DNA of 64,000 nt from Fistulifera solaris (lineage: Eukaryota): the NCBI GenBank assembly GCA_030295235.1, contig AP026126.1, positions 1,240,001-1,304,000 on the forward strand. Direction: 5' to 3'. Below, piece by piece: positions 2,990-42,939 of this stretch. The notes under the pieces were generated by a model. That model saw nothing but the letters and a program-made list of their open reading frames with translations. It did not search any database and was not told the DNA's origin. How positions within the stretch are numbered: position 1 is the stretch's first letter; every line of letters starts with the position of its first letter. The position numbers and the translations under genes are program-made.

Positions 2990-3860
2990 CATGTACTAAA
3001 TCTTTCAAACACACCAGATAAATAAGCTGTGTGCATGCTTATGACTAACCAGACGACTTTTGAACGGAGCTTCACATTGCGGTATTCTCCAAAAGGTACA
3101 CATCCCACAACATAGAAACAAGCGGATAGGCCTGAACCATGTCAGACAAAGCATAATCAACAAGCTGCCCTCCCTTGAACTGTAATACATTTCCCAACGC
3201 ACAAACCGCTCCTGCAGCGAAAGCCAGTAGACGATCAATCAACGAGTCTCGGCAAAAGTAAGCTGTCCAAAGCCGTATAGCGTTTGAGCAATTTGTTCTG
3301 CCTTGAAGAGCCAGCCTTTCATGCCACATAAGGAGACCATTTCCGAAAACACTAGCCGAACATAAAAGCTACGCTGAACCAAAAGTTAGCCTCCGCAATC
3401 AATGAATCTTGACTGGCGTTTGAATCATTTGGGTCCATGTTGTTGCTTGCCCATCGAAACGGATCGTTGACGGCGTTGTTGAATGCGGGCGAAAAGAAGC
3501 CAAAGCATATTCCACCTGCAAGTGCTACCACAACAGCCCAACGAGCGTCTTTGTAACCCTCATTTGATTCCTGTGATGAGTTGGGTAGTGAACTGAGCGA
3601 GGTTACATTGGATTGTTCATAAAGCTGGTAAGAAAAATCACGTTCCATTTCCTTTCTGAACTTGCGCCAGCGAAAGCATATTGTTCGGCTACCACAGCTT
3701 CGCTCACTGTCGTTTTAAGCACATTCATTAATTACTGGATCGATCCCTCATTTACTTCCCGTCCCCGTTTGCTGTTTGGTGGTGTCCTGGTCTTTTTTGG
3801 TGGGTATTTCTTTGCTACCCTGGCGCAGATTTTGTATGCACAAGAATGCGGTGAGGCAAA
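2990..3860 (-). pseudogene. Rearranged ureide permease (UPS family) remnant
   Basis: The minus strand gives AGGICFGFFSPAFN-A-ND, LGNVLQFKGGQ..DMVQAYPLVSMLW and FGEYR (C-terminal half). The plus strand at about 3690-3850 gives TASLTVVLSTFINYW..LLFGGVLVF, a more N-terminal segment in inverted orientation. No N-terminus is visible. Confidence 0.75.
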
Positions 3861-3953
3861 TGTCTTTATGACAACCGTTTCACAGAGATGGAGCTAGAGA
3901 GGAGATAGAACTGGACAAAGTTCATCCTCCATCTTGTGGCGGTGAAGAACCTT

Positions 3954-4233
3954 GATTGTCTGTATGAATGAAGTACAACAGGTCCAGAATTACTGGACCG
4001 TCCAAGATTTTCCGTACAAATGAATAACAACTGGTCCAGAATTTCTGGACTATCCCCGATTTTCCGTACAAATGAATAACAATTGGTCCAAAATTTCTGG
4101 ACCGCCCGGATCTTCTGTATGAATGAAATTCAACTGGTCCAGAATTTAGGGACCGTCCCCGATTTTCTGTATGAACGAAATACAACTGGTCCAGAATTTC
4201 TGGACCGTCCGGATTTTCTGTATGAATGAAATT
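3954..4233. repeat. 51-52 bp minisatellite, about 5.4 units, each with an internal palindrome
   Basis: Consensus GTATGAATGAAATACAACT-GGTCCAGAA-T-TTCTGGACC-GTCCCCGATTTTCT. Confidence 0.93.
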
Positions 4234-4550
4234 CCCCCAATAAGTGTTATCTGGACGCAACCACGACTGCATTCCACTAAAAAATCCATTTTGTCGCAAT
4301 TAGCCAGAATACGAGTCTATGCTCACTAACTTCCACATATTCTTTTAAGAACGGAATATGCTGAACGCAGTTTGGAGTAAGGGTTTTGTAACGATAGCTT
4401 TCCAAATACACAGAGATTAACCATTAGCTTTTTTCTGTCTTGTTGTCTTGGAAATTCATCAAACTTTCGCTGTGAAGTTTTATAACTTGGATGTGGCTCA
4501 GAAACTATGACCCGAAAGCAGCTTGTTACGAATTAGTCTTATTTTCACTG

Positions 4551-5540
4551 TCAAAACTTATTTTGCTTGGCAATATTTCCCGCCCTTACACGGCTAGATT
4601 GCTGAACATCACTTTTGAGTCCATGGCCCCTTTCTTGGCTTACTAAGACCGCTCCTTCAAATGTTCCGTCCTCTCGCTTCCATCCTTCGTTGGCGATGAC
4701 GGCACTATAAACCGGTATATCAAACCAGTTATTGTCAGCCAGCCAAACGTCGATCGGGCCTTGGACAGGTAACTTGTTGAGTAGAATCAGAGCCGCTTGC
4801 TGGGTGATCAGGTACGCATGCGTATGGTAACCATACTCAGGTTGATAAATCTCAACTGTGTACAAGTACTTAGACTTATGCCGGTTTTTATTGTGCATCG
4901 CTTCTACGTAGTGCCGTTCTCCTCGGCCAGAAAATCCCAAGTAGAGAATGCCCCAGTCACTCGGAACGTTGTCCAGAGCTTGCGCCAACACATCTACAAA
5001 TCGAGATCTACCAGCTACTGACGAGAAGACGGCATCATCTTCCAACACCATCATTACTGGATTTTCGCTTGACGATTCCGTTGAAGTAAGAATTTTCCAT
5101 AGTTCGACATGCGACAAAGCACAACCAACTTCCCCAGCCGTCATCGTTTTAGTACCTGGACGTGCTCTCGAACTGTATTTTGCATTTATTGATGCATCCC
5201 ATACTAGCTTAATGCAATCGTCGCTGCATCTACCTTCGCGCAAAACGTGTTTTCCATTGACGGCATCGAACCTCTTGACCAGCCCGGCGAATTCGCTGTG
5301 GACATTCAGAGCCCTATTCTGGAAAGCACGCCATTTGTCCGGGCGTTCCGATAGATTGATGCAATAATAGAGCGTGATTTGACCAAAATCAGGGGGTAGT
5401 TGCGTGGTTCTATTGTAGGCTAATGAACCATAATTTTCTTTGCAAGGAGTACGCTTGTTGGAATTTAATGGAGGTTTATTGCTCTCGTTGCAGCCTTCCC
5501 CTTCTTTTGAACGTCGCTTGTGCGGCGGGACATAGGCCAT
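4551..5540 (-). CDS. Glycosyltransferase family 25 protein, copy 1
   Basis: INLSERPDKW, RFDAVNG, GEVGCALSHVELW, VLEDDA, WGILYLG, THAYLIT and PIDVWL motifs. Confidence 0.88.
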   Translation of the reverse strand: MAYVPPHKRRSKEGEGCNESNKPPLNSNKRTPCKENYGSLAYNRTTQLPPDFGQITLYYCINLSERPDKWRAFQNRALNVHSEFAGLVKRFDAVNGKHVLREGRCSDDCIKLVWDASINAKYSSRARPGTKTMTAGEVGCALSHVELWKILTSTESSSENPVMMVLEDDAVFSSVAGRSRFVDVLAQALDNVPSDWGILYLGFSGRGERHYVEAMHNKNRHKSKYLYTVEIYQPEYGYHTHAYLITQQAALILLNKLPVQGPIDVWLADNNWFDIPVYSAVIANEGWKREDGTFEGAVLVSQERGHGLKSDVQQSSRVRAGNIAKQNKF

Positions 5541-6014
5541 CGCCTAGGAACACTGTTTTGCGGCAACCGGATCAAAAACAATATAATCATTAATCAGCAT
5601 CACAAATGCTTTCCTTGCAGCTTCGGTTTTGGAACGGAAACGACGGAAAACGGAAACAAAAGGTCGCAGTATTTCAAGTTCGCGAGTCCCGACATTGCAA
5701 AATCTTTTGCTTTAGTCACGGATCCTGTTCCTGTTGAAAAGCCCACTGCGACAAGATCCAAAACCACATGCGTTCTTGGTTCTACATGCCTTCTTGGTTC
5801 TTGGGCCAAGAAAGGCCGCATTTCTTCGATAAAAAAAATCGATGACATTTTAAATTTTTGTTATCTTTCCAGTTTGTAGCACTTTCTACATTACTACAGT
5901 ACAAAGTTAAAACCAAGCGAATTATACTGATACTACGTATTTATTCCTAATTTCCTCAAGTCAGAATGCAAAATTTGATGTTCATTATTTATAAATATAA
6001 AAGAAAGAAATAAA

Positions 6015-6294
6015 GCGGGAGCTGGAGATTACGCGAAAGTCGCTTAAAATTCTGTGAAACTACCATTTTTCATGACGGTGTTGCGTCCGAAGTTGTTGTT
6101 ACAAAGCAACGACGCTCAATGCGAATCACATAAGGCTTCAAATGGGTTACATTTCGGTTGAATTATGGTCAATTAGGTCCTTTGCAACCGTGTGAGCTTC
6201 ACCTGTCATTAAATAAGTGACTTCACACCCCGGAGATGCTGCTGTGGTTGTGGTTCTCCGAGTGAAGTCTTTCGTTTGAGGTCTTGCCAGCCCG
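6015..6294 (-). ncRNA. Candidate ~280-nt structured non-coding RNA of unknown family, copy 1; strand tentative
   Basis: Nested complementary pairs: 6019-25/6287-93, 6034-39/6269-74, 6072-80/6200-09, 6083-87/6111-15, 6140-44/6150-54, 6155-60/6185-90, 6219-26/6262-69, 6231-36/6255-60. Minus-strand TATATAAA about 30 nt upstream and a T-rich tract directly downstream. Confidence 0.5.
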
Positions 6295-6316
6295 TCAAAT
6301 GAGCGACGTCTTTCAC

Positions 6317-6371
6317 TTTATATAGCCCATCACATGCACTGAATCTGGAGATACATGTTTTGCGTGGGTCA
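6317..6371 (-). promoter_or_regulatory. Possible snRNA-type promoter (USE-like element plus TATA box)
   Basis: Minus strand TGACCCACGCAAAA (6371-6358) and TATATAAA (6324-6317) precede the structured segment. Confidence 0.4.
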
Positions 6372-7250
6372 CAGGACTTTTGTGCATAAAATTCTGGTAC
6401 TGATTATATTTTCGGTCTTCATAACGTGATGATGATTCGATCCACGTTGTGCATGTTGCTGTTTTGGTGCTGCTGTAGCTACGCGGATCCGAAATAATCG
6501 GAAGACGTTTGTCCCTTCATGACGCAAGGGAATTACCCATGATCTACTCACGGCTATACGTCATTGCAAAACAAAACACAAGCACAAGTCCCGATGCCGC
6601 TGCAAAGCCGTAATGCTACGGGTTCTTGCTGCCATTAGATTTACGGCGTTTAAAGACTTTTACATTGTACAAACATTATTTAGAAGTGTACTCCTCGAAA
6701 TACACACCTATTTATCGGCTTGATCTTGCAATAGCTTTCGTTGCGCTTCGAGCAAATGTTGAAGAAGCATCGTTCGATGGTTACTTGGTAACTGGTTCCA
6801 AAGCATATTCCACCTGCAAGTGCTACCACAACAGCCCAACGAGCGTCTTTGTAACCCTCATTTGATTCCTGTGATGAGTTGGGTAGTGAACTGAGCGAGG
6901 TTACATTGGATTGTTCATAAAGCTGGTAAGAAAAATCACGTTCCATTTCCTTTCTGAACTTGCGCCAGCGAAAGCATATTGTTCGGCTACCACAGCTTCG
7001 CTCACTGTCGTTTTAAGCACATTCATTAATTACTGGATCGATCCCTCATTTACTTCCCGTCCCCGTTTGCTGTTTGGTGGTGTCCTGGTCTTTTTGGTGG
7101 GTATTTCTTTGCTACCCTGGCGCAGATTTTGTATGCACAAGAATGCGGTGAGGCAAATGTCTTTATGACAACCGTTTCACAGAGATGGAGCTAGAGAGGA
7201 GATAGAACTGGACAAAGTTCATCCTCCATCTTGTGGCGGTGAAGAACCTT

Positions 7251-7530
7251 GATTGTCTGTATGAATGAAGTACAACAGGTCCAGAATTACTGGACCGTCC
7301 AAGATTTTCCGTACAAATGAATAACAACTGGTCCAGAATTTCTGGACTATCCCCGATTTTCCGTACAAATGAATAACAATTGGTCCAAAATTTCTGGACC
7401 GCCCGGATCTTCTGTATGAATGAAATTCAACTGGTCCAGAATTTAGGGACCGTCCCCGATTTTCTGTATGAACGAAATACAACTGGTCCAGAATTTCTGG
7501 ACCGTCCGGATTTTCTGTATGAATGAAATT
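7251..7530. repeat. 51-52 bp palindromic minisatellite, duplicated copy
   Basis: Same sequence as 3954-4233. Confidence 0.93.
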
Positions 7531-7847
7531 CCCCCAATAAGTGTTATCTGGACGCAACCACGACTGCATTCCACTAAAAAATCCATTTTGTCGCAATTAG
7601 CCAGAATACGAGTCTATGCTCACTAACTTCCACATATTCTTTTAAGAACGGAATATGCTGAACGCAGTTTGGAGTAAGGGTTTTGTAACGATAGCTTTCC
7701 AAATACACAGAGATTAACCATTAGCTTTTTTCTGTCTTGTTGTCTTGGAAATTCATCAAACTTTCGCTGTGAAGTTTTATAACTTGGATGTGGCTCAGAA
7801 ACTATGACCCGAAAGCAGCTTGTTACGAATTAGTCTTATTTTCACTG

Positions 7848-8837
7848 TCAAAACTTATTTTGCTTGGCAATATTTCCCGCCCTTACACGGCTAGATTGCT
7901 GAACATCACTTTTGAGTCCATGGCCCCTTTCTTGGCTTACTAAGACCGCTCCTTCAAATGTTCCGTCCTCTCGCTTCCATCCTTCGTTGGCGATGACGGC
8001 ACTATAAACCGGTATATCAAACCAGTTATTGTCAGCCAGCCAAACGTCGATCGGGCCTTGGACAGGTAACTTGTTGAGTAGAATCAGAGCCGCTTGCTGG
8101 GTGATCAGGTACGCATGCGTATGGTAACCATACTCAGGTTGATAAATCTCAACTGTGTACAAGTACTTAGACTTATGCCGGTTTTTATTGTGCATCGCTT
8201 CTACGTAGTGCCGTTCTCCTCGGCCAGAAAATCCCAAGTAGAGAATGCCCCAGTCACTCGGAACGTTGTCCAGAGCTTGCGCCAACACATCTACAAATCG
8301 AGATCTACCAGCTACTGACGAGAAGACGGCATCATCTTCCAACACCATCATTACTGGATTTTCGCTTGACGATTCCGTTGAAGTAAGAATTTTCCATAGT
8401 TCGACATGCGACAAAGCACAACCAACTTCCCCAGCCGTCATCGTTTTAGTACCTGGACGTGCTCTCGAACTGTATTTTGCATTTATTGATGCATCCCATA
8501 CTAGCTTAATGCAATCGTCGCTGCATCTACCTTCGCGCAAAACGTGTTTTCCATTGACGGCATCGAACCTCTTGACCAGCCCGGCGAATTCGCTGTGGAC
8601 ATTCAGAGCCCTATTCTGGAAAGCACGCCATTTGTCCGGGCGTTCCGATAGATTGATGCAATAATAGAGCGTGATTTGACCAAAATCAGGGGGTAGTTGC
8701 GTGGTTCTATTGTAGGCTAATGAACCATAATTTTCTTTGCAAGGAGTACGCTTGTTGGAATTTAATGGAGGTTTATTGCTCTCGTTGCAGCCTTCCCCTT
8801 CTTTTGAACGTCGCTTGTGCGGCGGGACATAGGCCAT
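7848..8837 (-). CDS. Glycosyltransferase family 25 protein, copy 2
   Basis: Translation identical to 4551-5540. Confidence 0.88.
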   Translation of the reverse strand: MAYVPPHKRRSKEGEGCNESNKPPLNSNKRTPCKENYGSLAYNRTTQLPPDFGQITLYYCINLSERPDKWRAFQNRALNVHSEFAGLVKRFDAVNGKHVLREGRCSDDCIKLVWDASINAKYSSRARPGTKTMTAGEVGCALSHVELWKILTSTESSSENPVMMVLEDDAVFSSVAGRSRFVDVLAQALDNVPSDWGILYLGFSGRGERHYVEAMHNKNRHKSKYLYTVEIYQPEYGYHTHAYLITQQAALILLNKLPVQGPIDVWLADNNWFDIPVYSAVIANEGWKREDGTFEGAVLVSQERGHGLKSDVQQSSRVRAGNIAKQNKF

Positions 8838-9312
8838 CGCCTAGGAACACTGTTTTGCGGCAACCGGATCAAAAACAATATAATCATTAATCAGCATCAC
8901 AAATGCTTTCCTTGCAGCTTCGGTTTTGGAACGGAAACGACGGAAAACGGAAACAAAAGGTCGCAGTATTTCAAGTTCGCGAGTCCCGACATTGCAAAAT
9001 CTTTTGCTTTAGTCACGGATCCTGTTCCTGTTGAAAAGCCCACTGCGACAAGATCCAAAACCACATGCGTTCTTGGTTCTACATGCCTTCTTGGTTCTTG
9101 GGCCAAGAAAGGCCGCATTTCTTCGATAAAAAAAATCGATGACATTTTAAATTTTTTGTTATCTTTCCAGTTTGTAGCACTTTCTACATTACTACAGTAC
9201 AAAGTTAAAACCAAGCGAATTATACTGATACTACGTATTTATTCCTAATTTCCTCAAGTCAGAATGCAAAATTTGATGTTCATTATTTATAAATATAAAA
9301 GAAAGAAATAAA

Positions 9313-9592
9313 GCGGGAGCTGGAGATTACGCGAAAGTCGCTTAAAATTCTGTGAAACTACCATTTTTCATGACGGTGTTGCGTCCGAAGTTGTTGTTAC
9401 AAAGCAACGACGCTCAATGCGAATCACATAAGGCTTCAAATGGGTTACATTTCGGTTGAATTATGGTCAATTAGGTCCTTTGCAACCGTGTGAGCTTCAC
9501 CTGTCATTAAATAAGTGACTTCACACCCCGGAGATGCTGCTGTGGTTGTGGTTCTCCGAGTGAAGTCTTTCGTTTGAGGTCTTGCCAGCCCG
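9313..9592 (-). ncRNA. Candidate structured non-coding RNA, copy 2
   Basis: Same sequence and flanks as 6015-6294. Confidence 0.5.
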
Positions 9593-10005
9593 TCAAATGA
9601 GCGACGTCTTTCACTTTATATAGCCCATCACATGCACTGAATCTGGAGATACATGTTTTGCGTGGGTCACAGGACTTTTGTGCATAAAATTCTGGTACTG
9701 ATTATATTTTCGGTCTTCATAACGTGATGATGATTCGATCCACGTTGTGCATGTTGCTGTTTTGGTGCTGCTGTAGCTACGCGGATCCGAAATAATCGGA
9801 AGACGTTTGTCCCTTCATGACGCAAGGGAATTACCCATGATCTACTCACGGCTATACGTCATTGCAAAACAAAACACAAGCACAAGTCCCGATGCCGCTG
9901 CAAAGCCGTAATGCTACGGGTTCTTGCTGCCATTAGATTTACGGCGTTTAAAGACTTTTACATTGTACAAACATTATTTAGAAGTGTACTCCTCGAAATA
10001 CACAC

Positions 10006-12836
10006 CTATTTATCGGCTTGATCTTGCAATAGCTTTCGTTGCGCTTCGAGCAAATGTTGAAGAAGCATCGTTCGATGGTTACTTGGTAACTGGTTCCGAA
10101 TAGACGATCTCCGGACAAATGCGCTCGCACGTTCCAATCCACAGCCAAATTCCATCATGGAATGGGCTAAGGAGCCAAGCTGGGCGAACACGATTGCGTG
10201 AACCTGCGACGCGGCTTCTACCCGCTCGACTGAATTCAGATCGTGCCATTTGGTTTTTCGAACCTGGCCCCACTCACTATTTTGTCGAATCTGACGGGCT
10301 CTCGATATCTTTTGTTTCTCGAAATTCGCCATCACTCCGCTTTGAGTCATTGCCTCGTCAATTTGTTGATTCAGGGCTTCGTCCCAGAACTCATCTTTGG
10401 ACCAAATTGGATGACCAAGTAACTTGTTCCGAATGTATATGCGTTCACTTCGTGAAATCGAAACGTCAAGGGAATGTTCACATGAATCGGATTCGATCAT
10501 GTAGAATGTTTGCGTCAACATGATGCATATCTTTGCATTCGATATTCCCCCTTCCTCATTCGCGCATCCGGTCAAAATGGCAGAGAAAATTTCGCAGAGA
10601 CCATCGAATTGAAGTTTCGTCAGCACATGGGCATTGTCGCTCCTTTTAAATTCAAAGCATAGCACAAAGCTGACCGCGATGATTTTCCTTGGTGGGCAGT
10701 TTGGCATAGAAACGATACTGTACTATCGAACTCATCGCGAATTCTCGCTGTGTCGTCGTTCATAAGCAAATCTTGCTGCAATTCTGATGTTGTAGCGAAC
10801 AACTTTTGAATGGAATCGTTGATTTTTTCTATTGACGACTCAAAAACAGCTTCATTCATTTCCGGGATCACCGATGGTGCTTGATCGGTACTGGTACCGT
10901 CAACGCGCTTCGAGGACTCCTGATGAGAGCCACCTGTCATGGCCTCTACGTGACTACTAAGTGTAGCAAGCGCCGAAGCCACTCCGCCATCATCATCGTC
11001 ACCGAGATGACTGGAGCCACCGGGGCTCCTCTTGTCGGCCTCTATGTAGAAATCCAAGTCGCGTCGCACATCTATCGCATCGATCGACTCTTCTACCGCA
11101 GCAAGTGATGTCAACCGATCTTCCAGAGACGCTCGTTCCAGCTCAATCCAGAATTTCAAGCATCGTGCCTGAGCGTTTCCTGCGGCAAGAAGACAAGCTT
11201 CAGCCGCTGTTCGAGCCGAACGACGCGTAGTATCTAAAGTAGACAGAAGATTCAGTAAATCTCGAGCGGCGTCTTCAATATCTTCATCAGCTTGTAGTGC
11301 TGTCTTTCTCAAATCCGGTAGACCAACGTAATGTTCAATTTGTTCACGTGATGCTGTGGGTCCGACAAGCTGGTCGTTAAATTCATCATCTCCTTCATCT
11401 CCATTGAAAGTAGCTTGGTCTTGTGGAAGTGAGAAAGGGGCGCTGGGTAGATCCATCGGTTCAAAACTACCATCTTCCATCATATCTGCGACACCTTTGG
11501 CTATATCAGAGATCTCCTCCGACGTTGTACCGAGAATGGCCGCCGACTGTCCGTCTTTTTGCTTTTTTAACTTATCCAGACGCAATCTCTGACGATCCAT
11601 ACTTCTTTGTTTTAAAGCTTGTTCCATCTTCTTTTGGCACTTTAACTCAGCGTTGTAAACATTTTCCCAACATCGATCAGCGTTCTGCTTAAGCTGCGAG
11701 ACCCTCTCTTCCATAATTCGTACACGTTTCAATATTTCGGTCAAAGCTTGTTGCCTTCCGGCAACGCGTTGTGCAGTTTTATCCATTGCAGCCCTGTATG
11801 CGGTCAAAAATCCTTCATACGACGAATCGCTCTGGGTCACTGCCGAGAAGCTATTGCGGAGTTTGCCATGATCTGTAGCGGCCGATGCCTTTTGTAATCG
11901 TTGAAGATCCGCTTCGGCCATAGATAAGTGATATTGTTCCAACGCCTGAATGGCTTGATACACCGTACTTGTGGACGGTGACAGGAGAGGTCCTACGCGT
12001 TCTGTCGTTTCTTCAAAATCCACTGCTCGTGGATCAAGAAGTTCCCAGTCCGACGACACCGTCCTGCCACGGCCTGAGTACCAGGCACTGCCGGTTCCAT
12101 TTGAAGTTACAACAGAAGGATGCGTCTGTCGCCATCGTTGACATAATTTGCTTACATCTGCACATATCTGCTGTTTGCTGGCCGTCAAAACATCATGGCA
12201 GAAGCTCCCCAGATGCTGCATGGACTGTTCTGTCTGATACAAGGCATGCGATGTCGCCGGTATAGACCATCCTTTGGCGCTAAATCCATTAAAATGCTGA
12301 TCCTTTTGCAAATCATTCCCCAAAAAGATTGCCGATTCGTAATCTTCTTTTCCTTGCGCGATAAGTTGTGAAAACAAGGTCAAAGCATCTTCATCTCGTT
12401 CCGGGTTCACATCCTCGCCATTGTTTTCTGAAACACCCTCCATACGATTGCCAGTTTTCTTCCACTGCGACGCAACTGTCTGACTGTTCACTAGTAGTAG
12501 ATCCCCGTCTGGTGAGACTAAAACCGAACAATCCATGAGACCCGATTGGGGATCTTTCCGAGCCGCCAGAACGGTATTTTCTTTCCGCAATCCGGAGGCA
12601 GCACCGAGGGCATCGGCGGCGTGAACACACGCATCAAATGTAGCGAGACCCGCCATTTTCTTGTTATCAGCATTCGTCCATCTCTTCTTTGGTGCTTTCT
12701 TTTCATTGAAACGAGCTTTGGGTGAGTTTGGCGCAGGAGACTGTTCCGTTGAAAGAACAAGTTCACCGTTGTCGTCTTTGTCGACTTTGCCGCCGCTATT
12801 CTCTTTCGAGAATTGGCGTTTCAGAGCGCGGATCAT
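10006..12836 (-). CDS. Large coiled-coil protein with C-terminal SBF1/SBF2-like domain
   Basis: 738-aa and 233-aa ORFs joined by a frameshift near 10645. The C-terminal pattern AKICIMLTQTFY..LLGHPIWSKDEFW..VFAQLGSLAHSMMEFG resembles the SBF2 domain. Confidence 0.65.
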
Positions 12837-19279: not shown

Positions 19280-20086
19280 CTAAAGAATGGACTTCAAATC
19301 AGCTGCAAGCAATTGCCACAATCTCATCTTCGTCTGAAGTTCGGCTAGACGAGATTCGTCCGAATCTTTACTACTATCTCGTTGCATTGTTGTGTCTTGG
19401 TAACTAGCACCATTCAACAAGAGATGGAGTTTCTTTTGTTCCTCGCTCGCGATTGCCTGTTTCAAAACTGACACTTCTTGACCAAGACCGGATATGAGTT
19501 GTTCGGCTGCGCTCAGCAGAGGTTTCAAAGCATGTTTCTGATGATTATAAACATCTTTGAAAAATCGAGCCTCCTTGCCGAGAAGTTGCGCAATGATGAA
19601 AAAGGAGTTATCTCGAAGCGGATGCGGTTCCGATAGGGAAATTGGACTAGAGGTTGCAAATTTGGAATGAAATACGCTAGATCGAGGGGTCAATCCAATA
19701 CGTCCAGGTGTCTGCTTCGCCGGCGATCGAGCTTTAGTATTCGCTTTGAGCTGCATTGCCTCTCGCCTAATATTATTCCAGAGAACGGCTTCCTTCTTTG
19801 CGCTGCTTATGCTAGGGCGATTGACGAGGAAATCTCCGATCTTGGTCCAAATGTCGTCGTCTATTTTGTCACCGCTAACGTCGCTAACGTCGCAATGACT
19901 CTGAACTGCATCTGACAAGTTTGATTTTCCATCGTAAAGAGATCTCAGCATCTTGAAATGAAAGTCGACAAAGCGAAACTTGGAAGCAAGTTCGACGGCA
20001 GCTTCTTCGCTGTCATCGCTCAACCGAGCACGCTTGCGAGACTGATCATCCACATCCTCCGCTTGGTCTCGAATATCCTTGTTCAT
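19280..20086 (-). CDS. Hypothetical protein, 268 aa, helical/coiled-coil C-terminus
   Basis: Uninterrupted ATG-started ORF filling the space between two genes. No family recognised. Confidence 0.6.
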   Translation of the reverse strand: MNKDIRDQAEDVDDQSRKRARLSDDSEEAAVELASKFRFVDFHFKMLRSLYDGKSNLSDAVQSHCDVSDVSGDKIDDDIWTKIGDFLVNRPSISSAKKEAVLWNNIRREAMQLKANTKARSPAKQTPGRIGLTPRSSVFHSKFATSSPISLSEPHPLRDNSFFIIAQLLGKEARFFKDVYNHQKHALKPLLSAAEQLISGLGQEVSVLKQAIASEEQKKLHLLLNGASYQDTTMQRDSSKDSDESRLAELQTKMRLWQLLAADLKSIL

Positions 20087-20520
20087 ATTATGTCAAGATC
20101 GTAGACGGTCTGGTCAAAAGTCAAACGTAATGCGGTGCAGCAACAACACCTACCTGCGACCTTGACTGCATAACCAGCACGGCATCACAGAGTAATTACC
20201 AGTATAACTCTCATCTCTCATGGCAAAAAGCAATGCGTTGCTTCTCTGCTGAGGTTAAGGTTAATTCTCGACGGAGGGGGTACCCGGATATGAAAGAATT
20301 TTACGACCCTCTACCTGGTACGGTACTTGTACCCGTACCAGGAAACGGCGTTAAAATTCTGCCTCGTCGTGGACAATACGTAGAAATCTTGTACTGTACT
20401 GGGAGGCAGAATTTTAACGTCCTTTCCAGGTGCCATGCTATCCACCAGGTACTTGGTATAATTAATTGCAACAAGTACAGTACCTGGTAAAGATGAATAC
20501 CATTATAAATTTGCATCAAA

Positions 20521-23500
20521 ATGGAAACAGATGATATTCATTTCGTTAAGATGGCGGAGGATGTGGCACAAAAAGCAGTAACAATCATCACACATTGTCT
20601 GGATGAGTTGCGTGATACAGAAGTCATCACCGCGTTCCGGACGGAGCACCTTCTTCTGCCAGTCTCCGACGTGCTTCAACAAGCACGTGCACTCCATGGC
20701 GATGCAACAAATGATAAAGGTCAAACAATTGTTGCCAATTCAGTGCGCCAAGTAATTGTTTTCGGCATTTTTGTACCTTTATTCGAGGCACTCACGTGTG
20801 CTTACAGAGTTCTCGACCGCATTCCCGAACCTCCTGTGATCAAGGGAGTCAAACCCAAGCCTCCTCCGGGGATGCTATCGCTACGAAATTACACCGATGT
20901 GGCTTGTGCAACGGAATGTGCAGTTCTTTTAGGTATTCTCCCTCATTTAGAACCGAATGTGCTGCTTGCCTCACTCGAACGATTGCGGTACAGCTTACCC
21001 AAATCCTTGGCGGGGCGATTGCCACGCCGACTGCTGTTGCAATCAAAAATGGTTGTAGATTTAGACTCTCGCGTGGCTGAGCTGGATGCCGTTGCTCGAG
21101 CCATTGGAAATTTAATTTCGCTGGATCGCTTTCGGCCCATGTTGCTGCCACGACATGTCGCAGACTTATACGCGGCTTTGCTACAAGCCAACCACGAGTC
21201 GCCCACAACTACACGGGGCTTACCCTGGTTATTTCAATCTACAGTGCCTACTCTTTTGCAAGCCAAAACATTTCAAATGTTATTGCTTTTTTGGTACGAA
21301 AGGACCTCTGTGGTTACGACAAGCCGTCTCCATCTATCTGACCGATCTCGCGGTACAAGATTTGTCAGCTATTGTTCAAGTCTTTGTCATGCCCGACATA
21401 AATTCTTCCTGCAGCTGCCATTCGTTTAGCCAAGACACTTCAAGTCAGTCGTCGAAAAGAGGACGACGAGGAATTCCACTATTTTTCTTCCTTGTTGCAC
21501 CAATGTTTTTCTTTCTTGTCTCACCTAGAGAACCAAGAGGCATCAAAAGTGCAATCCGTCGTACATACCGCGTGGGCGATTCTGGACATCATCCCCGTGG
21601 ATTGTTGGCGAAAATCAGTGCATTTCGATGCCACTTCTCCCATAGTCTTGTCACAATTTCTCAATCTATTTTCGTCGAGTACCACCGTCGAGCGATGCTC
21701 GACGTGTCATTGAATGGCTATGGGAAAGTATCGGAGAAGAGCCCAGTATCTGGTGCCTGTGGTGGCGACTGGCAGCTCATTCGGAAGTTTTACATGTACC
21801 AGTCGTTGAGAAAGTAAAACAATTGCTTCGTCTCGTGACTGTTATTTGGCTAGAACACGCTAAGAAGAACACAATCCAAAGGCGTGACAGGCTAGTGTTC
21901 CATTTGCTGCACGCACTTGCTCCGATTCCATGGGACGAAACTAAGTATTTACATATTGATCAACAAAGTATCCGAATCGAAGAACGAGAATCTAATTTAG
22001 CTGATCTCTCTGAAATGGCTCGTTTGGTCGAAAAAGGACTCTTGTTATGATTCATACCGTTTTGAAGAGCGATGATAATGAAGTGAGACTACTAGCTTCC
22101 TCTTTCTTTGCCTTGATTTTGAAGCTGTATCTCTCCTCCAATGGACTTGCTAAATCCTCTTTCCGATTAGTTCCCCTTGTTGCACTACCTCTTCTCTGCG
22201 AAGAGCTATCTCTCGAACCACTGTTGATCAGCAATGATAACAATGGAATTTTTGAGATGATGAAGTTCGCATTTGGTTGCATGGTAAAGCATTTCAGAGG
22301 AGAAAAGGAGATTGTTGCCGATTCGCTTTTCAGCTTAGACGAAAAGCGATTGTTAGAGGACCTGACGAGGTTGGGATCATCGCAAAGCATCCAAGAGTTT
22401 GCCATTGAACTGAGTCCAGAGACGCTGCTCTCAGTAGGGTCGCTTCTTCTTGGTATGCTAATCAGTATTTTGGAGTTAGGAGCTCAGGAGAGATCGATTG
22501 CCGATGAAGAAGTTCTGCAATCATTTATCGGACCACTCCAGACGTTCGCTCGGGTCACGGCTGACAGCGACGACATTTCATCGTCAACAAAGGTGGAGAT
22601 AGGAGAAATGTCCAGTCACGTTGTTGCTTTACTTGCTTCTAGAAAGGTTATAGAGCCGCAACAGAAGAACGCAACTGCTCAAAGTTTTGTTGACAAGGTT
22701 GCACAAATTGAGCAAGATCTGAAATCTTCCGAGCCACCTATTCGTGCACGCGGAGTCGTCACACTGCGCCATTTGGCTGGTGCTGTCGATGGTGCGACGG
22801 ATCGCACGGAATTTCTTTCGATTTTAAAATTGGCCGTTTCTGCCTTGGCGGACAAGGAATCGTACGTTTATTTGGCCGCTATACATACTCTTGCTGCTGT
22901 TGCAGATATTGTACCACCGATCGTGATTCCTATGATGGGTAGAGCAGTTGCTATTGGAACACTAAACTATGAAAGGTTGTCGGAGGAACAACGGATTAAA
23001 CTAGCGGAAGCATTGATTGCTGTGATTCGACGCAAGGCAGCTATCGATGAGTACTCCCCGTTTTTAATTGAGTATATGCTTTGGGGCTCCCCCAGCAATA
23101 AAACAACGGCAACACTATCACATGCGAAAACGATACAGCAGCAGACTCACGAATATTTTGTTGGGCCAGGAGATGATGAAGCAGAAGAAGACAAAAGCTT
23201 TGAAGAGCAAATGATTCGGCTCAACACAGGCGGCCCGCTGTTTAAAAACGAAGAAAGTGACATTCTTCAAGCTAGTTTCCTTCAGATTGTATCCGAACTT
23301 TGGGGATCTATTCGATCGGATGCTTACATCGGAAGTGTGATGCATGCTTGTAGACTTTCCGTGTCTCTGGATTCAGGTCGGCCTGTCAGACGTGCTGGTG
23401 CTCTTTTAGCACGACAAATGTATTCCAGGCTTTTGGAGCGAGGTGACCTAGACGAAGCGCGTTCTATGGTTGCTGCTAATGAGGAAGGCTTATACGCGTC

Positions 23501-42553: not shown

Positions 42554-42939
42554 GGTCGTTCCACAATTTGTTGCACCTTGCAAAAGGGCGACGAGGAAAA
42601 AAATTCATCTGGTCATCGTCAAAATAAAATAGTAATTTTAAGTAAATAAATTTGCACAGGCCAAGCAGGAACGACCATACTACGATGACAGCACCGCTTC
42701 CCGTCTGCTCAGCGAAGTTAATCATCGTCAGGCCCGGTTAGTACTACGGTGGGGGACCACGTTGGAATCCCGGGTGTTGTTCTTTGATTTTCCAAATCAA
42801 GCGTCTGCACGTCGGCAATCATTTTTGCGTATGTCACGTCATTTGGAGGATGGCGGTTTCCAGTTCTAAGGTTTCCCATTTTGCACGAATTCATTCTAGA
42901 GAACTCACCCATATTCATATCCGAGCGTTATAACAAAGG

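Follow-up and report, generated by a model that had tools for sequence, protein, structure and literature searches.

A candidate orphan small RNA gene behind a putative U6-type promoter in an intergenic spacer of a diatom

Background

Does the spacer upstream of a glycosyltransferase gene of Fistulifera solaris contain a gene for a small structured RNA, or is it ordinary promoter DNA in which pairings and promoter-like words can be picked out by eye? The question was raised by a preliminary description of the locus, which proposed a multi-branched non-coding RNA of about 280 nt transcribed from a promoter of the snRNA type. It was addressed here by analysis of the surrounding 64,000 nucleotides of contig AP026126.1, a stretch hereafter called the window, to which all positions refer. 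To our knowledge, the small non-coding RNAs of diatoms have barely been catalogued. The answer reached from sequence comparisons is a tentative one, held at slightly less than even confidence: the spacer may carry, in diatom nuclear DNA, an orphan small RNA gene of about 282-295 nt on the minus strand, read by Pol III from a U6-type promoter and belonging to no described family.

Results and discussion

Genomic context and coding potential

The spacer is bounded by the ATG of a gene for a GT25 glycosyltransferase (position 5540) and by the stop codon of an upstream minus-strand gene (10006 in the second copy of a duplication, equivalent to 6708 in the first). The stop-to-ATG distance amounts to 1168 nt, and the upstream gene, the candidate and GT25 all lie on the same strand. 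Intergenic gaps of about 1 kb are common within the window, and three consecutive same-strand units are compatible with a plainer explanation, namely that this is ordinary intergenic or promoter DNA with no dedicated structured RNA, its helices being the pairings that any 280-nt sequence offers and its TATA box and upstream motif either serving Pol II, which would make a short lncRNA or a long leader for GT25, or having no role. We regard this explanation as the main rival, only slightly less likely than an RNA gene; against it, a GT25 leader starting here would have a length of about 750 nt, with several upstream AUGs in it.

The absence of a long reading frame, on which the preliminary description had relied, holds: no open reading frame of at least 60 aa from a start codon was found inside 6012-6293; of the stop-to-stop frames that overlap this interval, the longest measure 56 and 64 aa. 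A perfect tandem duplication with a unit of 3298 bp, its halves differing by one T, covers 3500-6797 and 6798-10095, so that the candidate occurs a second time on the minus strand, promoter and body being identical, at 9310-9670 (offset 3298 nt). The second copy previously placed at 9313-9592 is therefore present and identical, but as the other half of a tandem duplication it is a product of that event and offers no independent support. No paralogues of the candidate beyond this copy were found within the window, exact 21-22-nt pieces of the candidate RNA had no match in the genome contig collection or in viral contigs, and a tRNA search found none. No RNA dataset was listed among the sequencing runs that contain the stretch, and the three runs analyzed, all made up of contigs (up to 24 kb), behave as DNA, with no start, end or strand signal; read depth is about 30 and even over gene and spacer, as for single-copy DNA apart from the duplication. 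A search with the GT25 protein retrieved diatom relatives (best identity 84%, next 61-65%), and a metagenome scan with the same protein gave 4 loci from 45 pattern matches, at 28-34% identity, which are useless for synteny.

Putative promoter elements and predicted start site

The case for a gene is carried by the promoter context of the minus strand, whose resemblance to U6 promoters is supported at the level of sequence. A consensus TATA box, TATATAAA, lies at 6317-6324 on the minus strand, in agreement with the earlier report of such a box about 30 nt upstream. It is one of three occurrences of TATATAAA on both strands of the window; two of them are the duplicated copies and the remaining one precedes a protein-coding ORF, as would be expected if the box served ordinary promoter DNA. 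TATA-like 7-mers numbered 24 in the window versus about 59 in block shuffles. The 24th nucleotide after the box is G6293, the first G of GGGCUGG and the predicted start site. In two published diatom U6 genes, the distance from the TATA box to the start G is 23 and 27 nt, the Phaeodactylum tricornutum U6 gene having a conserved G 27 bp past its TATA box (PMC4842962). The geometry of the candidate fits both genes, a supported likeness, and its sequence places a TATA box ahead of the predicted first base, as in U6-type Pol III genes, where the box is found about 25-30 nt upstream of the start.

Upstream of the box, the element GTGACCCACGCAAAA occupies 6358-6372 on the minus strand, with the core TGACCCACGC at 6371-6362, where an element about 75 nt upstream had been noted before; the distance from the end of its ACGC to the TATA box is 37 nt. 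The U6 promoter of P. tricornutum has CTTTGAC-ACGCCAA, and 37 nt separate this ACGC from the TATA box (PMC4842962, supplement). By eye, TGACCCACGC resembles TGACACGC of this published Phaeodactylum promoter and the candidate CTGTGACCCACGCAAA has the identical order and spacing of ACGC, 37 nt and TATA, in a comparison made post hoc with one promoter of another diatom. When the arrangement was written as the pattern TGAC-N0-2-ACGC-N33-41-TATAWR, only the candidate locus and its duplicate matched, 0.03 matches being expected per window.

The upstream motif alone may be less specific. At no more than one mismatch, GTGAC-NN-ACGCAAAA was found at three independent sites in the window versus 0.10 expected. 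A second perfect copy accompanies the 5S gene, the sole further Pol III gene recognized in the window, at a distance of 38-52 nt from its 3' end, which favors a small RNA gene; a one-mismatch copy lies 165-179 nt upstream of the ATG of protein-coding GT25. Owing to the latter, the motif may belong to promoters in general, with no specificity for small-RNA genes, which again suits the explanation by ordinary promoter DNA. The proposal of a plant-like USE of the CCCA type was not borne out, as GTGAC..ACGCAAAA, and not CCCA, is what the remaining occurrences of the motif have in common.

A composite of TATA-like box, 7-bp stem at the expected start and T-rich tail past the 3' strand was present at two of the 24 TATA-like sites, these being the candidate locus and its duplicate; with parameters chosen after the locus had been seen, it occurred once each in three of 30 block-shuffled windows, each with about 59 TATA-like sites. 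The 37-nt U6 spacing, a G at +24 and a T-rich tail adjoining the terminal stem are rare in shuffles when combined, which argues against ordinary promoter DNA. If the gene is real, the GTGAC-CC-ACGCAAAA element, the 37-nt spacer and the consensus TATA box would constitute an external promoter recruiting Pol III as at diatom U6 genes, with initiation at G6293.

Predicted transcript and its ends

The predicted transcribed body extends over 6012-6293 on the minus strand, about 282 nt (at most about 295 should the end lie deeper in the tail), as proposed from the start geometry and from the lack of both a long ORF and an Rfam match. Its terminal stem consists of GGGCUGG at 6287-6293 and CCAGCUC at 6019-6025, which pair with a probability of 0.64-0.99. 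The T-rich run said to follow the 3' stem is indeed there: UUUAUUUCUUUCUUUU, at 6014-5999 on the minus strand, begins 4 nt past the terminal stem and resembles in kind the TTCTTTGATTTT with which the 5S gene of the window ends. As a candidate Pol III terminator it would release an RNA of about 282-295 nt, the ends of which would pair in the 7-bp stem and leave over a short U-rich 3' tail. Short U-rich 3' tails of Pol III transcripts are bound by La-type proteins.

The T runs of this candidate terminator are at most T4. An internal UUUU at 6046-6049 on the minus strand, about 245 nt into the predicted RNA, equals the longest of them; it is a possible early Pol III stop and counts against the full-length model, since it could end the transcript prematurely.

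Secondary structure

The preliminary description had reported eight nested helices. All of the quoted strings are present where they had been located, on the minus strand: GGGCUGG (6293-6287) with CCAGCUC (6025-6019), CGAAAG with CUUUCG, AUGAC(A)GGUG with CACCGUCAU, and the hairpin GACUUCAC-UCGGAGA/UCUCCGG-GUGAAGUC at 6219-6269 (51 nt, 8 + 7 bp with a 3-nt bulge). As an ensemble, however, they amount to no more than chance. The minus-strand fold had a z of -0.97, 32 of 200 shuffles being as good (-1.26 and 13 of 150 in a repeat); that it was no better than shuffled sequence is one of the outcomes named beforehand as refuting the RNA, though a control shows this to be a weak test. The genuine 5S rRNA of the window folded with a z of only -1.18, and among 30 arbitrary 283-nt strand-windows taken elsewhere in the window eight reached -1.26 or lower and one reached -2.5 or lower, from which it follows that this statistic has little power either way.

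Ensemble pair probabilities were high for the terminal stem, as given above, and for the inner stem of the hairpin (0.93-1.0), low for its outer stem (0.09-0.17) and about 0.02 for both CGAAAG/CUUUCG and AUGAC..GGUG/CACC..GUCAU. Forcing all of the named helices into one fold gave -65.4 kcal/mol, where shuffles gave about -65 and the unconstrained optimum was -70.6, so that the proposed architecture is 5 kcal/mol worse than the best one. The multi-branched structure, being at chance level, is not evidence for an RNA, and both its chance-level stability on the proposed strand and the suboptimal architecture are what intergenic DNA would give. Only the hairpin segment (6213-6269) beat its shuffles, with z of -3.05 on the minus and -3.98 on the plus strand. 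Its 18-nt loop (6237-6254), ACCACAACCACAGCAGCA, contains ACCACAACCACA and two tandem copies of ACCACA. In the orphan RNA proposed here, the hairpin, with 15 bp, would be stable and would present this C/A-rich loop as the likeliest site of contact with a protein or nucleic-acid partner; any pairing outside that hairpin and the terminal stem is a suggestion.

The behavior of the hairpin raises the issue of strand. An RNA read from the plus strand, starting after the TATA-like run at 5986-6000, would fold better than the minus-strand one (z -2.73, 2 of 200 shuffles as good; repeat -2.49, 3 of 150), and a 9-bp hairpin contains two plus-strand G-U pairs that are C-A mismatches on the minus strand. 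The opposite G-U bias is displayed by the terminal stem and the inner hairpin stem, however, and one of the 30 background windows attains an equal z. Moreover, no U6-like upstream element was found on the plus side, and Pol III would be halted about 45 nt into the transcript by a T5 at 6066-6070. Transcription from the plus strand is therefore considered improbable.

Comparison with known RNA families

A gathering-level Rfam scan of the whole window returned only 5S rRNA. At E <= 10, seven weak matches of chance level were obtained on 701 nt and two on 296 nt, and models for snRNA, SRP, RNase P, MRP and telomerase RNA were absent even among these. The failure of the preliminary description to recognize likeness to U1-U6, U3, SRP or MRP/P is thus matched by Rfam scans of the stretch, which gave no family. 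Readings as SRP or U3 RNA were weighed by their motifs, likewise an Sm site (AAUUUUAAG ahead of a small hairpin), an H/ACA box and a P4 like that of RNase P/MRP, and all were dropped for want of model support. Most RNAs known to use U6-type or USE+TATA promoters are represented in Rfam, and the lack of a match is a further point in favor of ordinary promoter DNA. It is also what the proposed divergent or undescribed non-coding RNA would give. That proposal keeps the non-coding sequence, the lack of an Rfam family and the minus-strand promoter context on its side, but loses the structure and the second copy as support.

Two known RNAs deserve separate consideration. The first is the diatom telomerase RNA, of which a literature search yielded no description among the papers listed. 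The tandem ACCACA-ACCACA of the loop, two full copies of a 6-mer made of C and A only, has the form of a template and would specify a (TTGTGG)n telomere in place of TTAGGG, with the helix just upstream as template boundary and Pol III acting, as in plants and ciliates, from a USE+TATA promoter. According to PMC8287931, the telomerase RNAs of these groups have type-3 Pol III promoters and are missed by cross-lineage models, and the telomere repeat of one diatom, Nitzschia inconspicua, departs from the canonical one (PMC8329260). The latter work gives TTAGGG for the telomeres of Thalassiosira pseudonana and P. tricornutum, which speaks against this identity. As had been stated for TTAGGG, no template was found among the six telomere repeats checked: a C-strand permutation plus one base was absent from the candidate for TTAGGG, TTTAGGG, TTGGGG, TTAGGGTTGGGG and TTTTAGGG, and TTAGG had a single ACCTAA only. 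A literature search on TTGTGG-type words and telomeres showed no such telomere among the best matches listed. Judged by known telomerase RNAs, a template is also unlikely to sit in a loop of 18 nt at the tip of a 15-bp helix. On these grounds telomerase RNA is a very improbable identity for the candidate.

The second is a very divergent RNase MRP or P RNA, in which the terminal stems would correspond to P1/P2 and the hairpin to P3, with AAGUCACUUA and UAAGCGACUU forming P4 at long range. Size and Pol III-type promoter fit, these two segments are complementary over 10 positions with one mismatch (duplex -7.2 kcal/mol), and a hairpin with a GAAAA pentaloop, GUCAU-GAAAA-AUGGU, is present. By our estimate, a random sequence of 290 nt would offer about one complementarity of this size, and the P4-like pairing is in competition with both the hairpin and CGAAAG/CUUUCG. 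The P4 consensus of a published MRP search, gaaAGuCCCC / acnnnanGGGGCUnannnu at 80-500 nt with two deviations allowed (PMC1796607), had no counterpart in a manual inspection, the best candidates having more than two deviations or being separated by only 63 nt and lacking a preceding P3. In MRP RNA, the P8 pentaloop GARAR adjoins CR-I/P5, and CR-IV has six nt (PMC13184271); by the former criterion the sole GARAR hairpin of the candidate (GAAAA) is misplaced, lying about 140 nt from the CR-I-like site. With no Rfam P or MRP match on 296 nt even at E <= 10, this identity is extremely unlikely.

Implications and closest known systems

If the orphan RNA exists, diatoms would have a lineage-restricted Pol III transcript not described before, and the arrangement TGAC..ACGC-37 nt-TATA would provide a first handle on a diatom promoter of the snRNA type. 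Such a handle could be used genome-wide for hidden Pol III RNAs, including the diatom telomerase RNA, and could furnish additional guide-RNA promoters for diatom genome editing. Should it not be real, the locus would illustrate that a TATA box together with hand-drawn nested helices is no evidence for an RNA gene.

Among known systems, RNase MRP RNA is comparable to the candidate in length, transcription by Pol III (predicted for the candidate), paired termini and a helix-bulge-helix hairpin near the 5' end, and differs from it in possessing the P4 consensus, a GARAR loop beside CR-I and an Rfam match. Plants and ciliates have type-3 (USE + TATA) Pol III genes, among them those for telomerase RNAs, with which the candidate would share further features (PMC8287931): an external promoter with a fixed distance between element and TATA box, an RNA of a few hundred nucleotides, a T-rich terminator and a sequence that cross-lineage models do not find. 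Unlike the telomerase RNAs among them, the candidate contains no template for the telomere repeats that were checked. Its 37 nt between element and TATA box also differ from the distances given there for Arabidopsis, 23-24 bp in Pol III genes and 32-34 bp in Pol II snRNA genes, and the same work (Fajkus et al. 2021, PMC8287931) describes stramenopiles other than Blastocystis as having no conserved USE.

The closest counterparts are the U6 genes of diatoms (P. tricornutum chromosome 8; T. pseudonana). The body of the candidate has no U6 similarity, as indicated by the lack of an Rfam match, and is nearly three times longer, and its T runs of at most four contrast with the T8 terminator of the P. 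tricornutum U6 construct (PMC4842962, supplement). The likeness resides in the flanks: diatom U6 genes end in a T-rich tract, as the candidate would, and have a TATA box of the Pol III type followed at 23-27 nt by the start G, and that of P. tricornutum shares with the candidate TGAC..ACGC, with ACGC exactly 37 nt before the TATA box.

Organization and predicted promoter of the candidate locus

The candidate RNA gene is carried by the minus strand. Its upstream element, GTGACCCACGCAAAA (6372-6358), is followed by a 37-nt spacer and a TATA box, TATATAAA (6324-6317). After a further 23 nt comes GGGCUGG (6293-6287), the 5' arm of a terminal stem whose 3' arm, CCAGCUC (6025-6019), is followed by CCGC and then by a T-rich tail, UUUAUUUCUUUCUUUU (6014-5999). 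The body contains a long hairpin (6269-6219) with an 18-nt loop (6254-6237). All sequence strings quoted in the preliminary description of this locus were found in place, and the reported lack of a long ORF was also observed, the frames inside the body being open over at most 64 codons.

These features led us to a tentative reading of the locus as an orphan Pol III small RNA gene, with a probability falling just short of even. This reading is favoured by the U6-like promoter architecture and by the way the predicted start, the terminal stem and a T-rich tail fall together. It is weakened by a fold at chance level, by an internal UUUU that equals the strongest runs of the tail, by the use of one external comparator judged by eye, and because Rfam would recognise most RNAs using such promoters. 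The upstream element and TATA box would recruit Pol III, which would start at G6293 and stop in the T-rich tract. The RNA ends would then pair into the 7-bp stem, leaving a U-rich 3' tail as in other Pol III transcripts, and the stable hairpin would display its C/A-rich 18-nt loop as the likeliest interaction surface. Past the sequence elements and their spacing, we infer this mechanism.

TATA-like 7-mers (TATAWAW) were depleted in the window, with 24 on both strands versus about 59 in composition-matched block shuffles, and this scarcity makes an idle consensus box at the locus unlikely. A composite pattern (TATA-like box, 7-bp stem beginning where the start is expected, T-rich tail), whose parameters were set after the locus had been seen, was found among the 24 TATA-like sites at this locus only, with its duplicate, and once in each of 3 of 30 block-shuffled windows. 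The window also holds a solitary 5S rRNA gene (42667-42785, plus strand; Rfam 98.7 bits), preceded at about 25 nt by an AT-rich stretch. This gene ends in TTCTTTGATTTT, and the tail of the locus is alike, resembling a Pol III terminator.

Gene context and tandem duplication

The window consists of gene-dense eukaryotic DNA of about 46% G+C. The locus lies within a perfect 3298-bp tandem duplication (3500-6797 / 6798-10095), with a one-T difference in the T run at 5854. The second copy previously proposed at 9313-9592 does exist, but it provides no independent support because it is part of this duplication. The duplication edges cut ORFs (3352-3648 versus 6680-6946), and sequencing-run contigs branch at the junction (6799). 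Each copy holds a complete gene for a family-25 glycosyltransferase, GT25 (4551-5540 and 7848-8837); every named relative of this neighbouring protein found in a protein search came from a diatom (Attheya, Amphora, Cylindrotheca and a Bacillariaceae MAG), which is why the window is taken to be nuclear DNA of a diatom.

The minus strand carries the candidate together with the stop codon of the gene upstream of it (10006 in copy 2) and the start codon of GT25 (8837 in copy 2, 5540 in copy 1). Stop and ATG are 1168 nt apart, and the TATA box could therefore drive GT25 through a leader of roughly 750 nt. In that case the locus would be plain promoter or intergenic sequence that encodes no structured RNA of its own, our main rival explanation, whose probability we place only slightly below that of the small-RNA reading. 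It also draws on the distribution of TATATAAA, which occurs three times on both strands of the window: two occurrences are the locus and its duplicate, and the third precedes a protein-coding ORF. The several upstream AUGs that such a GT25 leader would include argue against this form of the explanation.

A 35-nt element (5937-5971 and 9235-9269) reached a depth of 680 versus about 31 around it in sequencing run X1. This roughly 20-fold excess, together with the unrelated flanks of the contigs carrying it, points to a dispersed short repeat. Its minus strand includes AATAAA, and it sits 40-75 nt past the predicted 3' end of the RNA. Just downstream of GT25 is a tandem array (3954-4232 and 7251-7529) of 5.4 copies of a 52-nt unit with 82% identity, a short palindrome, GGTCCAGAATTTCTGGACC, being present in every unit.

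Fold statistics

The structure of the candidate RNA was mostly no better than chance. The minus-strand RNA folded at -70.6 kcal/mol versus -65.8 ± 4.9 for dinucleotide shuffles (z -0.97; 32 of 200 as good), and the exact predicted transcript gave z -1.26, 13 of 150 shuffles being as good. The sole element beating shuffles was the hairpin segment 6213-6269 (minus strand z -3.05, plus strand z -3.98). The plus strand folded better than the minus (z -2.73 and -2.49), and these values favour a plus-strand RNA, which we consider very improbable. Of 30 strand-windows of 283 nt chosen arbitrarily from the rest of the window, eight reached the minus-strand z and one the plus-strand z; given this background and a z of just -1.18 for the genuine 5S rRNA, the fold z neither supports nor excludes an RNA.

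Only the terminal stem (0.64-0.99) and the inner hairpin stem (0.93-1.0) were favoured by ensemble pair probabilities. The outer hairpin stem reached 0.09-0.17, and the long-range helices CGAAAG/CUUUCG and AUGAC(A)GGUG/CACCGUCAU about 0.02. A fold forced to contain all named helices had -65.4 kcal/mol, 5 kcal/mol above the optimum and level with the average shuffle; the eight-helix architecture put forward earlier thus loses its value as evidence. Inverted repeats comparable to or stronger than the hairpin are present elsewhere in the window, the strongest short-range one (20337-20431; 29-nt arms, 90% complementarity, 37 nt between) lying in the spacer that separates the divergent ORFs 19280-20086 (minus) and 20521-21429 (plus).

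Comparison with known RNA families

At gathering level, Rfam recognised the 5S rRNA alone in the whole window. Permissive scans of the locus gave chance-level matches, seven on 701 nt and two on 296 nt, with none to the snRNA, U3, SRP, RNase P/MRP, 7SK or telomerase models. Both levels agree with the initial view of an unassigned RNA. The candidate RNA holds GUGAAGUC and ACAGAA, and a 10-position complementarity of AAGUCACUUA with UAAGCGACUU. RNase P/MRP membership was rejected: the MRP search consensus gaaAGuCCCC / acnnnanGGGGCUnannnu (PMC1796607) is not matched within its tolerances, the complementarity competes with the hairpin, and the sole GARAR-type hairpin loop lies away from the CR-I-like site, unlike P8, which adjoins CR-I (PMC13184271).

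Neither strand of the locus contains a telomere template (C-strand permutation plus one base) for TTAGGG, TTTAGGG, TTGGGG, TTAGGGTTGGGG or TTTTAGGG, the first as already described. The telomere repeat is TTAGGG in model diatoms and differs in Nitzschia inconspicua, and a limited literature search found no published description of a diatom telomerase RNA. Telomerase RNA and a divergent P/MRP RNA are subsets of the orphan small-RNA reading, and the chance of each is slight.

Upstream element and comparison with U6 promoters

The motif GTGAC-NN-ACGCAAAA was found at three independent sites in the window with at most one mismatch (0.10 expected) and at five with at most two (2.26 expected). Its second mismatch-free site (42823-42837, minus strand), 38-52 nt past the 3' end of the 5S gene and on the opposite strand to it, hints at a link to Pol III genes. 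Another site, with one mismatch (5705-5719, minus strand), precedes the GT25 start codon by 165-179 nt and would fit a promoter element of general use. No TATA box lies 37 nt downstream of either site. Given these occurrences, F. solaris may use the motif repeatedly as a promoter element.

The arrangement TGAC-N0-2-ACGC-N33-41-TATAWR was restricted in the window to the locus and its duplicate (0.03 expected). The P. tricornutum U6 promoter, as given in the supplement of PMC4842962, reads CTTTGAC-ACGCCAA with ACGC exactly 37 nt before TATA. The locus reads CTGTGACCCACGCAAA, its ACGC also exactly 37 nt before TATA. By eye, and against this single external comparator, it matches at 12 of the 14 positions compared once a single 2-nt gap is introduced. 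By our own post hoc estimate, a match locked in register like this would arise by chance with a probability of roughly 0.001 to 0.02. The snRNA-type promoter context suggested in the preliminary description is strengthened by the U6-like geometry and the 37-nt spacing, and a CCCA-type USE as in plants is not supported: the part common to the motif copies of the window differs from the CCCA core of plant-type USEs (PMC8287931). The start geometry also fits diatom U6 genes: a G, with which the terminal stem opens, is the 24th nucleotide past TATATAAA, compared with a promoter end placed by 5' RACE 23 nt past the TATA box in T. pseudonana U6 and a conserved G at 27 bp past it in P. tricornutum U6 (PMC4842962).
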